From positions 1 to 32,114 of the forward strand of contig JBDGSJ010000029.1 in assembly GCA_042217585.1 (NCBI GenBank): a stretch of DNA of 32,114 nucleotides, read 5' to 3'. This DNA is from Candidatus Nanohaloarchaea archaeon. GTDB taxonomy: Archaea; Nanohalarchaeota; Nanosalinia; Nanosalinales; Nanosalinaceae. This document shows, piece by piece, positions 8,020 to 27,646 of the stretch (position 1 is its first letter; every line of letters begins with the position of its first letter). The position numbers were made by a program, and so were the translations under genes. The notes below the pieces were generated by a model. It worked only from the letters and a program-made list of their open reading frames with translations, did no database searches and was not told the origin of the DNA.

Positions 8020-9120
8020 TCAGAGAGACTGATCGTGTTCCTCCAGGAACTGCTCCACCTCTGGACCTGCCTGCTCCCTCCTCTCCCTGTGCTCCACGAG
8101 GAACTCCTCGAGCCTTTCCTTCGCTATCTGCTTCAGCTCCCCTGAAAGCATTTCACCTGAGCTGTACTCCTCCCTGATCCTCTCAAGCTCGTCGTCGTTC
8201 TCTATCAAGTGGAATGCCAGGAGCTCGAACACCATGTCCTCGGAGATATCGGCACCTTTCTCCCTGTGTTCCTCGAGAGAGTCCTGGCCCCCGGTCTTGG
8301 CCTGATCTATCTTTTCCTTGGCGTCCTCGATGTCGTCCGTCAGAGCTATGTAGCTCTTGGGATCCGAGGAACTCATCTTCCCTCCCTGCAGCCCTCTCAT
8401 GAACTTGTTGTACGTGGAGGCCGGCTTCACGAAGTCTATCTCCTGGTACTTGGAGGCGACCTCCCTTGTCAGCCTGATGTGGGGATCCTGGTCCACCCCT
8501 ACCGGTACCACGGTCGGCTTCGGACCTCCCCTCTCCGGGAACTGCGGGCGGAGTATATCGGCGTACTGGGTTAGCGAGGAGGCTATCTTGCCGGGGTCCG
8601 CGCTCCCGTACGTCGCCTCGACCTCGTTCTGCGTGAGGTGACGGGCGAACTGCTTGGACCTGAGGTGGTAGTCGTTCCCCCCATTGGACTGGAAGTAAAA
8701 GTCGGTTTTTTCAAGGTCCATGCCGAGAGCCACGTAGTTCTTGAGGTACTGCTCCACGACCAGCTCACGGGATTCCTCCAGAGAGATGTCACGAGTGGCG
8801 TATGCCTCTATATCGGCCGCGGCTACGGTCACCTCGGCTCCCATCTCCTGGTACATCAGTATCTGGTCCACGACGCTCTTGTGGCCGAAGTGGAAGATAC
8901 CTGAGGGCATTATACCGGTCATCATAGCGATGTCCTCGCCCTCATCCCTCGCGTCAAGGAAGTCCTCCATGCCTCTGTGGCCGAATATTATACCCCTGCG
9001 GACCAGGAGGCTGTCCGGCATCCGGTCCTCGATCTCACCTATCGGATCTATACCGAACTTCTGCATCTTTTTCCTGTAGTTCCCGACCTCGACGTCTCCC
9101 CAAGGATCTATCTCTGGCAT
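8020..9120 (-). CDS. trpS: Tryptophanyl-tRNA synthetase
   Basis: IDPWG, TGIMPSGIFHFGH (HIGH), PVGVDQDPHIRLTR, KMSSS, AKTGG. Confidence 0.97.
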   Translation of the reverse strand: MPEIDPWGDVEVGNYRKKMQKFGIDPIGEIEDRMPDSLLVRRGIIFGHRGMEDFLDARDEGEDIAMMTGIMPSGIFHFGHKSVVDQILMYQEMGAEVTVAAADIEAYATRDISLEESRELVVEQYLKNYVALGMDLEKTDFYFQSNGGNDYHLRSKQFARHLTQNEVEATYGSADPGKIASSLTQYADILRPQFPERGGPKPTVVPVGVDQDPHIRLTREVASKYQEIDFVKPASTYNKFMRGLQGGKMSSSDPKSYIALTDDIEDAKEKIDQAKTGGQDSLEEHREKGADISEDMVFELLAFHLIENDDELERIREEYSSGEMLSGELKQIAKERLEEFLVEHRERREQAGPEVEQFLEEHDQSL

Positions 9121-9221: not shown

Positions 9222-9278
9222 TCAGGCTTTTGAAAGGATCCAAAAACGTCCACCCTTCGTTGAAACCGCGGAAACCAT
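9222..9278 (-). CDS. trpS leader uORF MVSAVSTKGGRFWILSKA (18 aa)
   Basis: ATG 9278, TGA 9224-9222; Trp codon 9242-9240; +1 frame open to TAA 9124-9122, 1 nt before the trpS ATG. Confidence 0.8.
   Translation of the reverse strand: MVSAVSTKGGRFWILSKA
9240..9257 (-). promoter_or_regulatory. Putative +1 frameshift cassette, Trp sensor (AAG GGT GGA CGT TTT TGG)
   Basis: Conserved 18-mer in frame with the leader ATG; SD-like GGGTGG, spacer codon, TTT-T slip site, TGG. Confidence 0.8.
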
Positions 9279-15330: not shown

Positions 15331-16087
15331 CTCCATCACCTTCCACGGCGGATGAGACCTTTTCAGCGAGTTCACGCATCCCCTCAGGGCCGTCCTCCCT
15401 GTACCGGTCGATGAGGGCGCTACCCATTATGACGCCGTCAGCCCCCGAATCGATCGCCGTTCTCGCCTGTTCAGGTCCTGATATCCCGAAACCTATGCAC
15501 CGGGGGACATCCATACCTTCTGTCTTCTCCACGAGTCCTCTTGACTTGGATGAGAACTCGTCTCTCGCCCCTGTAGTCCCTTTCACGGAGACAAGGTAGG
15601 CAAACCCTTCGGTCATCTCCCCTATCGTCTCTATCCTTTCCTCCGGCGTGTTCTGGGACACCAGGAAGATGTGGTCCAGCGGGCTGTCCACGTCGGAGAA
15701 CTCCTCCCTGAACTCGCCGGGAGGCATGTCGGGTATTATCAGTCCTTCCACCCCTGCGCTATCGGCGTCGTCAACGAACTCCTGGTACCCGTAGCTGTAG
15801 ACCGTGTTGGCATACGCCAGCAATACTATCGGCGTGTCCCCGAACTCGGAGCTTATCTCGAAAACTTCATCTACAGTAGTTCCGGCCTGGAGGGCGGCGT
15901 GGTCAGCCTCCTTTATCGTCGGTCCGTCAGCCATCGGATCGCTGAACGGAACGCCGAGTTCGACCACGTCCGCACCTGAATCGATGAGCGCTCTCACCAT
16001 CTCCTTTGACCTTTCGACATCGGGGTAACCGGCGACGGTGAACGGGACGAATGACGGGTCCTCGAGCGCTTCCTCAATCGAACTCAA
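15320..16087 (-). CDS. trpA: Tryptophan synthase alpha chain
   Basis: [47 protein letters not shown] start at 16087 behind GGAGGTG. Confidence 0.95.
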
Positions 16088-17237
16088 GGCCTTCCACCTC
16101 CGCAACCGTGTCCATGTCCTTGTCTCCCCTTCCGGAGAGATTGACGACTATGGTCTCGTGTTCATCCGCGATCTGTTTCGTGAGCGCGACAGCGTGGGAG
16201 GACTCCAGTGCCGGAATGATGCCCTCCTCCTCGCAGAGGTCCCGGAAAGCGTCCATCGCCTCCTGGTCCGTGACAGGGCTGTACTCGGCCCTTCCCAGGA
16301 CCTTCATCTCGGAGTGCTCGGGACCGACACCGGGATAGTCCAGTCCCGCGGACACCGACTCGGTCTCCTCAATGTTCCCCTCGTCGTCCTGGAGCAGGTA
16401 GGACCTGAATCCCTGGAAGATGCCTGGCTCTCCTTCGGAGAGCGTCGCGGCGTTTCCACCTTCCTCCGGTCCGCCGGCCTCTGCTCCGTAGAAATCAACC
16501 TCCGTATCCCTGAACTCGTGGAAGAGGCCGAGCGCGTTGCTTCCTCCTCCGACGCAGGCGACCAGGGCGTCAGGTAGCTCTCCCTCCTTCTCCATCACCT
16601 GTCTCCGGGTCTCCTCCCCTATCACGCTCTGGAAGTACCGGACCATCTCCGGGAACGGTTCGGGACCGACAACGGAGCCTATCAGGTAGTGGGTGTCGTC
16701 CGAGTTCGCCACGTAGTCCTGGATGGCTGCGGTGACGGCGTCCTTCAGCGTCTCGGACCCTTCCTCGACCGGGTTCACCTCGGCCCCGCATTTCTCGATC
16801 CTTAGCGCGTTCATCTTCTGCCTCTCGACGTCCTTGCGACCCATGTATATCTCGACGTCCATGTCGAGGTAGGCTCCGGCCATCGCCGTCGCTATACCGT
16901 GCTGACCGGCCCCTGTCTCTGCGATCAGGCGGTCCTTGCCCATCCTTTTCGCGAGCAGGGCCTGGCCCAGCGTGTTGTTTATCTTGTGGGCTCCGCCGTG
17001 TAGGAGGTCCTCACGTTTCAGGTATATCTCCGCACCGTATTTCTCGGAGAGGTTCTCCGCGTGGTAGAGGTTCGTCGGTCTTCCCGCGTACTCCTCCAGG
17101 TGGCGCCGGAAATCCTCTCTGAACTCCTCGCTGTCCTTCGCCTCCTCGAACTCCTCCTGGAGTTCCTGGAGGACCGGGACGAGAAGCTCCGGCACGAACC
17201 TCCCACCGAACCGGGATTCCGCCTTCCCGGAGGTCAT
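16074..17237 (-). CDS. trpB: Tryptophan synthase beta chain
   Basis: [15 protein letters not shown] (PLP lysine), [37 protein letters not shown]. Confidence 0.98.
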
Positions 17238-17288: not shown

Positions 17289-17372
17289 TTAGAGAACAGT
17301 TCCAGTGCTGGAGGACCAAAAACGTCCACCTTTCCGATCCTCCGCAGCGTATGCGAAGCCTGAACTTTTCAT
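17289..17372 (-). CDS. trpB proximal leader uORF MKSSGFAYAAEDRKGGRFWSSSTGTVL (27 aa)
   Basis: ATG 17372 preceded by AGGTGG; TAA 17291-17289; Trp codon 17318-17316; +1 frame ends in TGA 17236-17234 overlapping the trpB ATG. Confidence 0.8.
   Translation of the reverse strand: MKSSGFAYAAEDRKGGRFWSSSTGTVL
17316..17333 (-). promoter_or_regulatory. Putative +1 frameshift cassette, Trp sensor (AAA GGT GGA CGT TTT TGG)
   Basis: Conserved cassette, in frame with the leader ATG. Confidence 0.8.
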
Positions 17373-17583: not shown

Positions 17584-17601
17584 CCAAAAACGTCCACCCT
17601 T
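17584..17601 (-). promoter_or_regulatory. Putative +1 frameshift cassette, Trp sensor, second of the tandem pair
   Basis: AAG GGT GGA CGT TTT TGG lying 58 nt (19 codons + 1) downstream of the first copy, so in its +1 frame. Confidence 0.78.
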
Positions 17602-17617
17602 CAGATAGAAGCGGCTC

Positions 17618-17668
17618 TCACAGAGAACTGAGTTCCCGGGTCCAAAAACGTCCACCCTTCTGAGCCAT
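17618..17668 (-). CDS. trp operon distal leader uORF MAQKGGRFWTRELSSL (16 aa)
   Basis: ATG 17668, about 24 nt downstream of TTTAAAA (17698-17692), leaderless spacing; TGA 17620-17618. Confidence 0.78.
   Translation of the reverse strand: MAQKGGRFWTRELSSL
17642..17659 (-). promoter_or_regulatory. Putative +1 frameshift cassette, Trp sensor, first of the tandem pair
   Basis: AAG GGT GGA CGT TTT TGG in frame with ATG 17668. Confidence 0.8.
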
Positions 17669-25021: not shown

Positions 25022-25765
25022 ATGACCAGTTTAAAAACCGGCAGATATAAACCCCGTCTGGTATACTTCCTGATCTTCCTGAACCTCGTGGTCTTCGCCG
25101 CCCAGATAGCTCTCCCGCTCGAGACAGTGAAGCAGTACGCGTTCAGCATGGAGAACCTGCTCCAGAACCCTGTCTCGGTCCTGAGCTACGGCTTCATGCA
25201 CGCCGGACCTGGCCACATAGCCGGGAACATGGTGGCGCTGTTCCTCCAGGGACGGATACTTGAGAGGTCCACCGGAAAGGGGAAACTCGCGCTGACCTAC
25301 GCCGCCGGGACCATCGCAGGAGGCCTTGTCTGGCTCCCGCTGAACCCCGAGGCCTCGCTGGTCGGTGCGTCCGCCGCGACCTCCGCGATACTCGGTGCGA
25401 ACGTCCTCGCATCGCCGGACCGCTCCCTGCTCGAGGAGGTCCCTCTCCTGAGAAGGATACCTCTTCCCGGGATAAGGAACTTCTTCTCAGTCGCGGTCTG
25501 GGCCGCGCTGATGCTGATATTCAACATACAGGCCACGGTGAAGGGTGCGGGCGATGTGGCGACCATCGCGCACCTCGGAGGATTCGCCGCGGGAGCGATG
25601 CTGATATGGACCACAGGCGAAACTGACAGCAGGAAAGGCGCGGTCCTCACACCGGTCTTCGCGCTACTGATGGCAGGAATAGCGCTTTCCGCAGCGGGCT
25701 CCACCGTCTACTGGGCTCTACTTCTGCTGTTCGTTGTGCTGGCACTCAGCGTGAGGAGGCTCTGA
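25022..25765 (+). CDS. Rhomboid family intramembrane serine protease
   Basis: FMHAGPGHIAGNM, GASA catalytic Ser, AHLGG catalytic His; hydrophobic. Confidence 0.9.
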   Translation: MTSLKTGRYKPRLVYFLIFLNLVVFAAQIALPLETVKQYAFSMENLLQNPVSVLSYGFMHAGPGHIAGNMVALFLQGRILERSTGKGKLALTYAAGTIAGGLVWLPLNPEASLVGASAATSAILGANVLASPDRSLLEEVPLLRRIPLPGIRNFFSVAVWAALMLIFNIQATVKGAGDVATIAHLGGFAAGAMLIWTTGETDSRKGAVLTPVFALLMAGIALSAAGSTVYWALLLLFVVLALSVRRL

Positions 25766-25813
25766 GGGGAAGTGTATTTAAGACTGGACTGTGAACTCTC
25801 CGGTGTGGTACCC

Positions 25814-25867
25814 ATGACAACCAAGGGTGGATGTTTTGGATCTGCCGCAAGGCAGGACTCCGAATGA
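25814..25867 (+). CDS. glyS leader uORF MTTKGGCFGSAARQDSE (17 aa)
   Basis: TATTTAA 25775-25781 upstream; ATG 25814; Gly codon 25838-25840 after TTT; +1 frame ends in TGA 25920-25922 overlapping the glyS ATG. Confidence 0.75.
   Translation: MTTKGGCFGSAARQDSE
25823..25840 (+). promoter_or_regulatory. Putative +1 frameshift cassette, Gly sensor (AAG GGT GGA TGT TTT GGA)
   Basis: Same cassette as in the trp leaders, with the sensor codon changed from TGG to GGA. Confidence 0.72.
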
Positions 25868-25918
25868 CGCATTTTACGTTCTCAAAACCTTTGATACAGC
25901 CGAGGAAGTGACCTCGAT

Positions 25919-27646
25919 ATGAGCGAGTCAGAGGAACTGGACGAGATAGCAAGGAGAAGAGGTTTCTACTCCCAGACCGCGGAATCCTACGGCGGTGTCG
26001 CCGGCTTCTACACCTTCGGTCCTGAAGGCGCCGAACTGAAGAGGAACATAGAGAACTCGTGGCGCGACTGGTTCAGGATACGTGAGGGCCACAGGGAGAT
26101 AGAGGCGCCGACGATCATGCCGGAACCGATCTTCGAGTCCTCCGGCCACCTCGACGGCTTCGACGACATGATAATCGAATGCCCCGAGTGCGGTACGAGC
26201 TCGAGGGCGGACCACCTCGTCGAGGACAACACCGATATCGAGGAGGCGGAGAGCTTTTCCACGGACCAGATAGAGGCGCTCATCGAGGATCACGACCTCT
26301 GCTGCCCGACCTGCGGACACGACCTGACAGGTATCGAGGTGGACGACTTCAACCTGATGTTCAGCACGAACATCGGTCCAGGCGACTCCTCGCCCGGCTA
26401 CCTCAGGCCCGAGACCGCACAAGGCATCTTCGCCGAGTTCCCGAGGTTCAAGGAGTACGCCCGCGAACAGCTGCCCTTCGCGATCACACAGCTCGGAAAG
26501 GCGTACAGGAACGAGATAAGCCCGCGGAACGCGCTGGTCCGGGTCCGCGAGTTCACCCAGGCGGAGCTGGAGCACTTCATAGATCCTGAGAGGGATGAAC
26601 CGGAGCTCGAAAAGGTCGAGGACATCGAGCTGAAGCTCTATCCCGCCGAGAAACAGGGAGAGGGCGAATACGTCAGGGCGACGGTCCGCGAGGCGGTCGA
26701 GAACGGTATAATCGAGTCAGAGTGGATCGCCTACTACCTCGGACTGGCGAAGCAGTGGTACATGAGCATAGGCGTCGACATGGACCGATTCAGGTTCAGG
26801 CAGCACCTGGAGGGCGAGAGAGCCCATTACGCCACGGACTGCTGGGACGCCGAGAGCGAGGTCGACGGCGACTGGATAGAGATAGCCGGTTTCGCCTACA
26901 GGGGCTGCTACGACCTGAAGAAGCACCACGAGAACTCCGAGGACGACTTCAGGATATTCAGACAGTACGACGAGCCGAAGACCGTCGAGGATAAGACCGT
27001 CAACCCTGACATGGGATACCTCGGCCCCGAGTACGGAGAGAAAGCCGGCGACATAGCAGAAAGCCTTGAAAAACTCGCAGAGGACGAACCCGAGGCGTTC
27101 GACTCCGATCACGTGACCGTGACGGTCGGCGACGAGGAGTTCGAGATACCGTCCGGAAAGGCGAACTTCAGCGTCGAGGAGAAGGAGAAGAACGGCGAGA
27201 AGTTCCTTCCGCACGTCGTCGAGCCCTCCTTCGGTATCGGCAGGACTGTCTACACGGTCCTCGCCCACCGGATGGAGGAAGAGGAGATAGAAGACGGTGA
27301 GAGGACCGTGATGAGGTTCTCACCGGAGATAGCGCCGACGGAGGTCGCCGTCCTTCCCCTGATGGACAAGGAGGGCATGGGAGAGAAGGCAGAGGAACTG
27401 GTCCGGCGGCTCAGGGCCGAGAGCTTCTCCGTCAGCGCTGATACCTCGGGAAGCATCGGTAGACGTTACCGGAGGCAGGACGAGGTCGGTACACCTGTCT
27501 GCGTCACCGTCGACTACGAGACGCTTGAGGAGGGCACCGTCACTCTGAGGGACCGGGACTCCACGGAGCAGGCCCGGGTGGATGTCGAGGACCTCGAGAG
27601 AAGCATCATAAGGTTCCTCTCCGGAACGGAGCTTGAGGACCTGTGA
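25919..27646 (+). CDS. glyS: Glycyl-tRNA synthetase (archaeal/eukaryotic alpha2 type)
   Basis: LRPETAQGIF, YRNEISPR, RVREFTQAELE, AHYA, VVEPSFGIGR, SIGRRYRRQDEVG. Confidence 0.97.
   Translation: MSESEELDEIARRRGFYSQTAESYGGVAGFYTFGPEGAELKRNIENSWRDWFRIREGHREIEAPTIMPEPIFESSGHLDGFDDMIIECPECGTSSRADHLVEDNTDIEEAESFSTDQIEALIEDHDLCCPTCGHDLTGIEVDDFNLMFSTNIGPGDSSPGYLRPETAQGIFAEFPRFKEYAREQLPFAITQLGKAYRNEISPRNALVRVREFTQAELEHFIDPERDEPELEKVEDIELKLYPAEKQGEGEYVRATVREAVENGIIESEWIAYYLGLAKQWYMSIGVDMDRFRFRQHLEGERAHYATDCWDAESEVDGDWIEIAGFAYRGCYDLKKHHENSEDDFRIFRQYDEPKTVEDKTVNPDMGYLGPEYGEKAGDIAESLEKLAEDEPEAFDSDHVTVTVGDEEFEIPSGKANFSVEEKEKNGEKFLPHVVEPSFGIGRTVYTVLAHRMEEEEIEDGERTVMRFSPEIAPTEVAVLPLMDKEGMGEKAEELVRRLRAESFSVSADTSGSIGRRYRRQDEVGTPVCVTVDYETLEEGTVTLRDRDSTEQARVDVEDLERSIIRFLSGTELEDL

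Follow-up and report, generated by a model that had tools for sequence, protein, structure and literature searches.

A leader cassette with an exchangeable sensor codon precedes glyS and other aminoacyl-tRNA synthetase genes in Nanohaloarchaeota and may act by programmed +1 frameshifting

To our knowledge, archaea have no T-boxes, and little is understood of the means by which they adjust the levels of synthetases to the supply of amino acids. The bacterial leader-peptide attenuators trpL, pheL and hisL, and likewise pheM–pheST of E. coli, use an upstream short open reading frame (ORF) with cognate codons, and the speed of the ribosome on that ORF is the signal. In prfB, a short ORF carries a Shine–Dalgarno (SD)-like word a few bases before a slippery P-site codon, with UAU in the E site, and the slow A-site codon, a UGA stop, reports a shortage of the gene's own product. 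T-boxes, such as that of Staphylococcus aureus glyS (PMC4574755), are large folded RNAs to which uncharged tRNA binds directly, without translation, and a single specifier codon sets the specificity of this shared cis module before many aminoacyl-tRNA synthetase (aaRS) genes. Slipping of the tRNA in the P site under a limiting supply of aminoacyl-tRNA for the A site is described in two reviews, for hungry codons and for the CUU-AGG-C site of yeast Ty1 (PMC5009743, PMC8211752). In the ermC leader, a frameshift lets ribosomes enter the spacer, unfold the mRNA and permit downstream initiation (PMC5009743). Here, we describe the leader of the glycyl-tRNA synthetase gene glyS on a contig of a Candidatus Nanohaloarchaea archaeon (JBDGSJ010000029.1, assembly GCA_042217585.1), together with the family of similar leaders, or cassettes, to which it belongs. 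The entire 32-kb contig (32,114 nucleotides, nt) was analyzed and is referred to below as the window.

The glyS leader lies on the forward strand and starts with a TATA-like box (TATTTAAG, 25775–25782), the putative leader promoter P1, 10 nt past the stop codon of a rhomboid-family gene (end at 25765) and 39 nt ahead of the ATG of a short leader ORF. This 0-frame ORF (MTTKGGCFGSAARQDSE, 25814–25867) runs from ATG 25814–25816 to TGA 25865–25867 and includes the words AAG GGT GGA TGT TTT at 25823–25837. They comprise an SD-like word (AAGGGTGGA, 25823–25831), whose GGTG core (25826–25829) is 5 nt ahead of the Phe codon TTT (25835–25837), the proposed slippery P-site codon. The next codon, GGA (25838–25840), encodes Gly and is the proposed hungry A-site codon, denoted the sensor codon. 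A +1-frame ORF (DLPQGRTPNDAFYVLKTFDTAEEVTSI, 25839–25922) extends for 27 codons to TGA 25920–25922, which overlaps the glyS ATG (25919–25921) in the sequence ATATGA. An earlier reading of this DNA, made from the sequence only, had placed a glyS leader here, with GGA replacing the TGG of the Trp leaders in the window and a +1 TGA overlapping the glyS ATG; this was correct to the base, and the +1 ORF indeed has the same length at glyS and trpB, 27 codons in both.

The motif recurs far beyond chance. When at most one mismatch was allowed, the 15-mer AARGGTGGAYGTTTT was found 11 times in the 980-kb genome, compared to 0 for a reversed control, each copy within a short ORF downstream of its own TATA-like box. 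The 14-mer ARGGTGGAYGTTTT was present in 53 of 70 genomes of the phylum (≈139 matches against 5 control matches), mainly in the families f1 (43/49) and f4 (7/8) and in one genus only of f3, while the 12-mer GGTGGAYGTTTT was found in 31 of the 41 genomes of the family and order, with ≈100 matches against ≈14 in the control. Judged by these sequences, the copies constitute a cassette family of Nanohaloarchaeota, made up of its own TATA box, a short ORF, the SD-like GGTG(G/A)A, a variable YRY codon, an invariant TTT and one sensor codon.

The sensor codon matches the gene that follows. Downstream genes in the genome itself were identified by NCBIfam and Pfam; the 92 matches outside it were all fetched and their downstream ORFs identified. 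In the genome itself, the codon after TTT is ACC at thrS, GTA at valS, TCT at serS, TGG at trpS and trpB, and GGA at glyS, and is thus cognate in 6/6 identified loci. In the relatives, the sensor was cognate to the downstream gene at 55/55 aaRS loci: thrS (12 loci, ACC/ACA), serS (11, TCC/TCT), glyS (12, GGA), tyrS (8, TAC/TAT), valS (4, GTA), cysS (3, TGT), trpS (3, TGG), pheS (1, TTC) and lysS (1, AAG). Together, the matches span nine synthetases (Gly, Thr, Ser, Tyr, Val, Cys, Trp, Phe and Lys). Cassettes with Phe followed by a sensor, which the sequence-only reading had proposed to look for upstream of other aaRS genes, are therefore present, each with the cognate codon, and its suggestion that the cassette is modular and reprogrammable by one codon agrees with the match at all of these loci. 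The sole clear sensor/gene non-match was L096 (G015:C1), in which MQGGCF-K, with the Lys sensor AAA, stands before an endonuclease V gene instead of lysS; this is either a mismatch or a different target.

To survey glyS irrespective of its leader, we collected 80 glyS loci by GlyRS-protein search, 21 of them nanohaloarchaeal and 59 from Halobacteria. Three of the 21 came without upstream flank, and 18 were assessed. A cassette with TTT-GGA was found in 17 of these 18, so that the counter-evidence envisaged by the sequence-only reading, glyS orthologues without a Gly codon at this position, did not emerge. Twelve had the strict GG[RC]F-GGA and five had variants (K-G-G-Y-F-G in three, K-G-E-C-F-G and N-G-E-C-F-G in one each); the remaining locus (L131) has a TATA box only and no cassette. 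The motif was found in 0/59 of the Halobacteria glyS loci. The sensor was GGA in 23/23 distinct glyS leaders.

We then considered the reading frames in the 58 cassettes adjoining an identified aaRS gene or trpB (52 in relatives and 6 in the genome itself), with the start of the downstream (main) gene assigned by a fixed first-ATG rule. (Tandem cassettes or distant starts leave the main start ambiguous in L072, L068 and the relatives' trpS loci, which were therefore excluded.) The 0-frame ORF is real: all 58 of 58 cassettes have an ATG in this frame at most 25 codons upstream, uninterrupted by a stop, compared to 2/58 in each of the other frames, and a TATA-like word was present 27–58 nt before this ATG in 47/58, in 45 of them at 27–46 nt. 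The first stop fell within 16 nt of the main start in 55/58 cassettes for the +1 frame, in 5/58 for the +2 frame and in 0/58 for the 0 frame. ATGA is the commonest +1 end, its stop falling 1 nt past the start; at serS it reads ATGCTTGA, and others stop 4–12 nt ahead of the ATG. Miscalled starts seem to account for the three misses: L041 had been called at TTG and L058 at GTG, and in L023 the true start should be next to the +1 stop, because the cysS profile begins at residue 57 of the call. In all 23 distinct glyS leaders the +1 stop lies between −13 and +10. The +1 coupling geometry that had been claimed to be shared by glyS and the Trp leaders is thus common to the family.

A +1 ORF that is read precisely when one amino acid is short should avoid the cognate codons. 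For the classes with enough data (Thr, Ser, Gly, Tyr and Val), cognate codons were rarer in the +1 ORFs in all five, with 51 seen against ≈128 expected from the other leaders, or ≈2.5-fold. The frequency in cognate compared to other leaders was 0.028 and 0.065 for Thr codons, 0.050 and 0.165 for Ser, 0.039 and 0.061 for Gly, and 0.020 and 0.055 for Val; Tyr codons were absent from cognate leaders (0 of 228), compared to 0.026 in the others.

Both GGTG and TTT are invariant across the 23 glyS leaders (alignment A1). The residue before Phe is R, C or Y (YRY codons), the second Gly can be Glu, and the first position can be K, E, Q, N, T or S. Since the residues vary while GGTG and TTT are fixed, the conserved object is an RNA word and not an arrest peptide, and the leader peptide at the sensor is only 6 residues long in 38/58 cassettes (MKGG..., with the ATG directly before AAR-GGT). 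The 16S gene was not assembled in this metagenome-assembled genome, and the 3′ end was taken from three relatives, in which it is GGAUCACCUCC-A (n = 3); GGTG and its flanks can form ≈6 pairs with it. The GGTGAA variant is closer to a canonical SD than GGTGGA, which also serves as the real SD of thrS in this genome. Among 514 crude gene calls in the genome, the spacing from GGTG to ATG peaked at 5–8 nt (counts 10, 13, 14 and 11), placing the 5 nt of the cassette at the short edge of the natural range; it becomes 6 after a +1 move. TTT makes up only 8% of the Phe codons in the genome, and UUU should be held by a wobble pair, since the single tRNA-Phe found has the anticodon GAA. After a +1 slip the codon becomes UUN, and therefore two of the three pairs are always kept. 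Sensors that begin with U or C allow perfect re-pairing, and those that begin with G or A leave a wobble mismatch (UUG at glyS).

From this pattern we infer, with a probability of roughly 0.6, a hungry-codon +1 frameshift on UUU followed by termination–reinitiation at the glyS start, so that the leader would be a translational sensor of charged tRNA-Gly. A ribosome would initiate at the leader ATG, translate K-G-G-C-F and come to rest with UUU in the P site, awaiting Gly-tRNA at GGA. With ample Gly-tRNA, reading would continue in the 0 frame to the stop 9 codons on, ≈50 nt short of glyS. With scarce Gly-tRNA, the A site would stay empty, and the peptidyl-tRNA-Phe (anticodon GAA, held by G:U wobble on the rare UUU) would slip one base forward onto UUG, presumably assisted by pairing of the SD-like GGUG, 5 nt upstream, with the 3′ end of 16S rRNA. 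The shifted ribosome would translate the 27-codon +1 frame through a predicted hairpin that holds the glyS ribosome-binding site, terminate at the TGA of ATATGA and re-initiate at the glyS ATG. Under such a scheme, the output of glyS would rise when the enzyme's own product is short, and swapping the single sensor codon would re-aim the cassette at other genes. For the phylum as a whole, we give slightly better than even odds to the generalization that Nanohaloarchaeota regulate at least nine aaRS genes and tryptophan genes with one modular cassette, in which a programmed +1 frameshift at an exchangeable hungry sense codon gauges the charging of one tRNA and is coupled to translation of the cognate gene.

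A hairpin (UCUGCC-GCAA-GGCAGG, 25841–25856) was predicted in the glyS leader, directly 3′ of the sensor codon. A hairpin starting 0–7 nt after GGA is found in 22/23 glyS leaders, with stem sequences that differ. In the ungapped alignment A1, a single 5-bp register (columns 28–32/39–43) had 69.6% of cells paired, compared to 52.6% in shuffled alignments (0 of 500) and 24–44% in slid controls, and each of the five pairs varies on both sides. A role of the post-sensor hairpin as a stimulator of frameshifting in general was rejected: the mean minimum free energy (MFE) of the 32 nt after the sensor in the 58 cassettes was −4.9 kcal/mol, equal to that of coding controls (Wilcoxon p 0.89). Since it is not general to the other cassette classes, the glyS hairpin was not counted in the core mechanism. 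Folding of the glyS and trpB leaders gave local hairpins after the sensor and at the ribosome-binding site and no terminator/antiterminator pair. At glyS, the latter hairpin (CGAGG-AAGTGA-CCUCG, 25901–25916) lies just ahead of the ATG, was obtained in both MFE and centroid predictions, and may mask the SD-like GAGGAAGTGA that it contains; at trpB, the SD is predicted to pair with codons 2–4 of the gene.

The most serious rival to frameshifting is that the leader contains two overlapping small ORFs and no shift occurs, the +1 ORF starting at the GTG within GGTGGA (G GTG GAY GTT TT) and being coupled to glyS; the 0-frame ORF and its sensor codon would do no more than modulate this start, through a ribosome that stalls at the sensor and covers the GTG. 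Such a GTG is in the +1 frame of every cassette by virtue of being part of GGTG, so that comparison cannot separate it from the SD-like word, and the long ORF of a Trp-linked gene family of unknown function reads V-[DN]-[VAI]-F-G from exactly this GTG. We nevertheless consider this reading unlikely. The GTG is not preceded by an SD or positioned at an mRNA 5′ end; the TATA box in 45/58 cassettes and the ATG in 58/58 point to the 0-frame start instead. Regulation would moreover have the wrong sign, the gene going down when its product is short, because the stall would block the GTG, and the rare TTT directly before the sensor is left without explanation. A further alternative, which we rate as a little more doubtful, keeps the frame unchanged throughout: a ribosome paused at the sensor, aided by the SD-like word or by the K-G-G-R/C-F peptide, would remodel the leader RNA or protect it against termination, in the manner of classical attenuation or of arrest of the erm type. 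This accommodates the sensor–gene match, and a ribosome stalled at GGA would melt the covarying glyS hairpin, with further hairpins predicted over the ribosome-binding sites of glyS and trpB. It provides no reason, however, for an open +1 frame that ends at the start codon (55/58, compared to 5/58 for +2) or for the depletion of cognate codons within it; moreover, the hairpin is not general, the peptide is short in most cassettes and variable in its residues, each cassette has a single regulatory codon, and the terminator/antiterminator pair of such systems was not found in the two leaders folded.

A T-box-like riboswitch would do without translation of the leader, its specifier codon being paired directly by uncharged tRNA, and would share the use of one codon to set the amino acid and the same functional logic for aaRS genes. 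However, an Rfam scan of the window gave no family at the gathering score, the T-box model (RF00230) included, and neither a large conserved fold nor a UGGN acceptor-binding bulge was seen in the leaders. With an in-frame ATG always present and the +1 frame conserved, we regard this reading as highly improbable; to the extent that Rfam and the ever-present leader ATG allow a judgment, a T-box-like RNA is excluded.

Several observations weigh against hungry-codon frameshifting as we propose it. The depletion of Gly codons is weak (0.039 compared to 0.061), with a frequency no higher in the +2-frame control (0.036), and the +1 ORF of glyS itself contains one Gly codon (GGC 25851–25853). After the slip, tRNA-Phe is left with a wobble mismatch (UUG or UUA) if the sensor is for Gly, Val, Thr, Lys or Ile. 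At 5 nt, the SD-like word is spaced within the natural range, and a push of the prfB type should therefore be less strong than it is in E. coli. When glycine is short, ribosomes would also stall at the two Gly codons of the SD-like word. The sequence-only reading had itself raised the UUU-to-UUG re-pairing, the Gly codons of the SD-like word and the GGC, and these cautions are accurate. Any effect of a hairpin just 3′ of the A site should be to hinder forward slippage, and the serS and tyrS leaders do not have this hairpin. Much of the glyS mRNA may be without the leader, because a TATA box is located 29–31 nt before the glyS ATG in 15/23 leaders. Finally, the kin genomes are not independent, and the cassette counts therefore overstate their significance.

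The TATA box close to glyS reads TATAAAAA, TATAAAAG or TTTAAAAC, and 29–31 nt is the distance expected of a promoter for a leaderless mRNA. The leader in the window has only TCAAAACC, at −37, within a TATA-like element (TCAAAACCTTTGATAC, 25882–25897) that is 37 nt ahead of the glyS ATG and a candidate second promoter, P2; its YYAAAAYC word resembles ordinary TATA boxes found ≈30 nt before ATGs in this genome. Many leaders also have a conserved block, TTCAAAACCTTCTAG and relatives, 48–54 nt before the main ATG. In low-GC relatives (L032, L066, L083, L090, L106 and others), TTCAAAACCTTCTAG is followed by CTATAAAAATTTCC 29–31 nt before the main ATG in glyS, serS, tyrS, thrS and lysS leaders. The block was rejected as part of a +1-frame peptide, as its frame relative to the +1 ORF differs between leaders. 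Pairing with AAGG...GUUUU was rejected as well, being weak by eye (3–5 bp plus a 7-nt bulge) and absent from the predicted fold. The TTCAAAACCTTCTAG/CTATAAAAATTTCC region probably comprises a second promoter and, upstream of it, a palindromic (TCTAGA-like) site for a regulator, and the main genes thus probably have a second promoter inside the leader. In that case, not all expression would be controlled by the cassette, which would superimpose an inducible layer on the transcripts made from the upstream promoter. Neither this likely second promoter nor the possible GTG start of the +1 ORF had been noted in the sequence-only reading.

Among the known systems, prfB shares with the cassette the short 0-frame ORF, the SD-like word a few bases before a slippery P-site codon, a YRY-type E-site codon and a slow A-site codon that reports a shortage of the gene's own product. 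The two differ in that the A-site codon here is a sense codon (GGA) instead of a UGA stop, the link to the product is indirect, via tRNA charging, and the +1 frame at glyS ends on the start codon and does not encode the enzyme. The 5-nt spacing is not clearly strained, and in this the resemblance to prfB is loose; the cassette is archaeal, and there is no homology. Leader-peptide attenuators differ in having a run of regulatory codons, whereas the cassette has one, with tandem cassettes only before trpB; the archaeal leaders have a conserved second reading frame, and folding at glyS and trpB gave no terminator/antiterminator pair. Unlike the arrest leaders ermCL, TnaC and SecM, the cassette has no conserved arrest peptide, and nucleotides, GGTG and TTT, are fixed instead. 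The trigger of ermC frameshifting is a ketolide antibiotic on the ribosome (PMC5009743), whereas that of the cassette would be the supply of aminoacyl-tRNA at one programmable codon, and the cassette also conserves its slippery site and ends its +1 frame precisely on the start codon. Hungry-codon shifts are error-type events and Ty1 uses a set ratio for retroelement expression (PMC5009743, PMC8211752); neither is a conserved cellular sensor tied to a cognate synthetase gene.

Each step of the proposed mechanism has a precedent, in prfB, antizyme, Ty1 and hungry codons and in the frameshifting that ketolides induce in the ermC leader (PMC5009743). A 2021 review of archaeal recoding lists only one programmed frameshift for an archaeal cellular gene, a −1 shift (fucA1), and no regulatory one (PMC8211752), and the productive use of hungry-codon frameshifting is posed as an open question in the 2016 frameshifting review (PMC5009743). 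A full-text search of one limited literature collection returned no description of such leaders. If the proposed reading is right, the cassette would provide archaea with a counterpart of the bacterial T-box that is based on translation, and would answer both the question of synthetase control in archaea and that of productive hungry-codon frameshifting. Since the cassette is short (≈110 nt) and its specificity resides in three bases, the idea is directly testable by codon swaps, and the cassette could serve as a programmable sensor of tRNA charging.

The window contains four TGG versions of the motif with the same words, all on the minus strand: one before trpS (9257–9243) and three before trpB (17333–17319, 17601–17587 and 17659–17645). 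The trpS leader ORF (MVSAVSTKGGRFWILSKA, 9222–9278) has TGG as sensor, and its +1 frame ends with a TAA 1 nt before the ATG of trpS (8020–9120). In the trpB-proximal leader ORF (MKSSGFAYAAEDRKGGRFWSSSTGTVL, 17289–17372), again with TGG, the 27-codon +1 ORF ends in ATGA on trpB (16074–17237). The geometry is identical to that of glyS, with the main start 93 nt after GGT and the +1 stop 1 nt after the start in both. Upstream of this cassette are two tandem Trp cassettes (17587–17668; MAQKGGRFW..., then KGGRFW), with motif starts 58 nt apart and an open frame between them. The first of them has the second in its +1 frame, so that passing both would require two successive slips, and the pair might work as an amplifier with a squared response. 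After both shifts, the frame extends to ≈17440 and contains a 33-codon ATG ORF. The proteins that Trp shortage would induce are themselves nearly free of Trp, with 1 Trp per 366 residues in TrpRS and 0 per 387 in TrpB.

In some Trp cassettes the +1 frame encodes the product straight on, as in prfB. On contig C8 of this genome (L015, 1961–5137), two TGG cassettes (EGGRF-W and KGERF-W) precede an operon, and the +1 frame of the second continues, uninterrupted by a stop, into a 339-residue ORF that matched no Pfam family (best match cyclodipeptide synthase, E 0.28). Downstream are genes for a GNAT acetyltransferase and an enolase-superfamily (MR_MLE) enzyme, and the three proteins contain 0, 0 and 1 Trp. 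An ORF of the same type, reading V-[DN]-[VAI]-F-G..., is present in the relatives L056, L059 and L084. In the TGG cassettes L017 (G035:C4; trpD), L061 and L067, the +1 frame continues for 290–460 codons into the main ORF. These three, like C8, have a prfB-like fusion architecture and not coupling. Besides trpS, TGG cassettes of the relatives are located ahead of trpB (2 loci), trpD, a hisC-like aminotransferase gene (2 loci) and several unnamed ORFs.

About 20 further matches, with Ile, Val, Phe, His or Cys sensors, precede ORFs without a family, and L028, L055 and L107 look like chance matches inside ORFs. A branched-chain type of leader was found at a contig end in this genome (C19, L014, ≈46566–46686, minus strand) and in L034, L081, L089 and L094; its single 0-frame ORF has KGGRF-V (or -I) followed by G-G-R/C-V-L (GGTGGA YGY GTT CTG), in which Val replaces Phe, and no NCBIfam family was found for the downstream ORFs. 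A search of the short ORFs of the genome for the peptide G-G-[RC]-F gave 25 matches, of which those beyond the 11 nucleotide-motif sites were discounted as lying within long ORFs or chance-like, and a relaxed-motif, coupling-based scan of the genome gave no cassettes beyond the known ones.

The genome of this salt-lake archaeon is 0.98 Mb in size, with 57% GC, and ≈90% complete. In addition to glyS and trpS, the window contains PGK, shikimate-pathway genes and a trpB-A-D-F-E-G-C operon. The glyS gene (25919–27646, forward strand) encodes a dimeric glycyl-tRNA synthetase of the archaeal/eukaryal type with 575 residues (TIGR00389 glyS_dimeric, E 1e-194), and comparison of the GlyRS proteins placed its nearest relatives in Nanohaloarchaea, Ca. 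Nanosalina and Ca. Nanohalobium.

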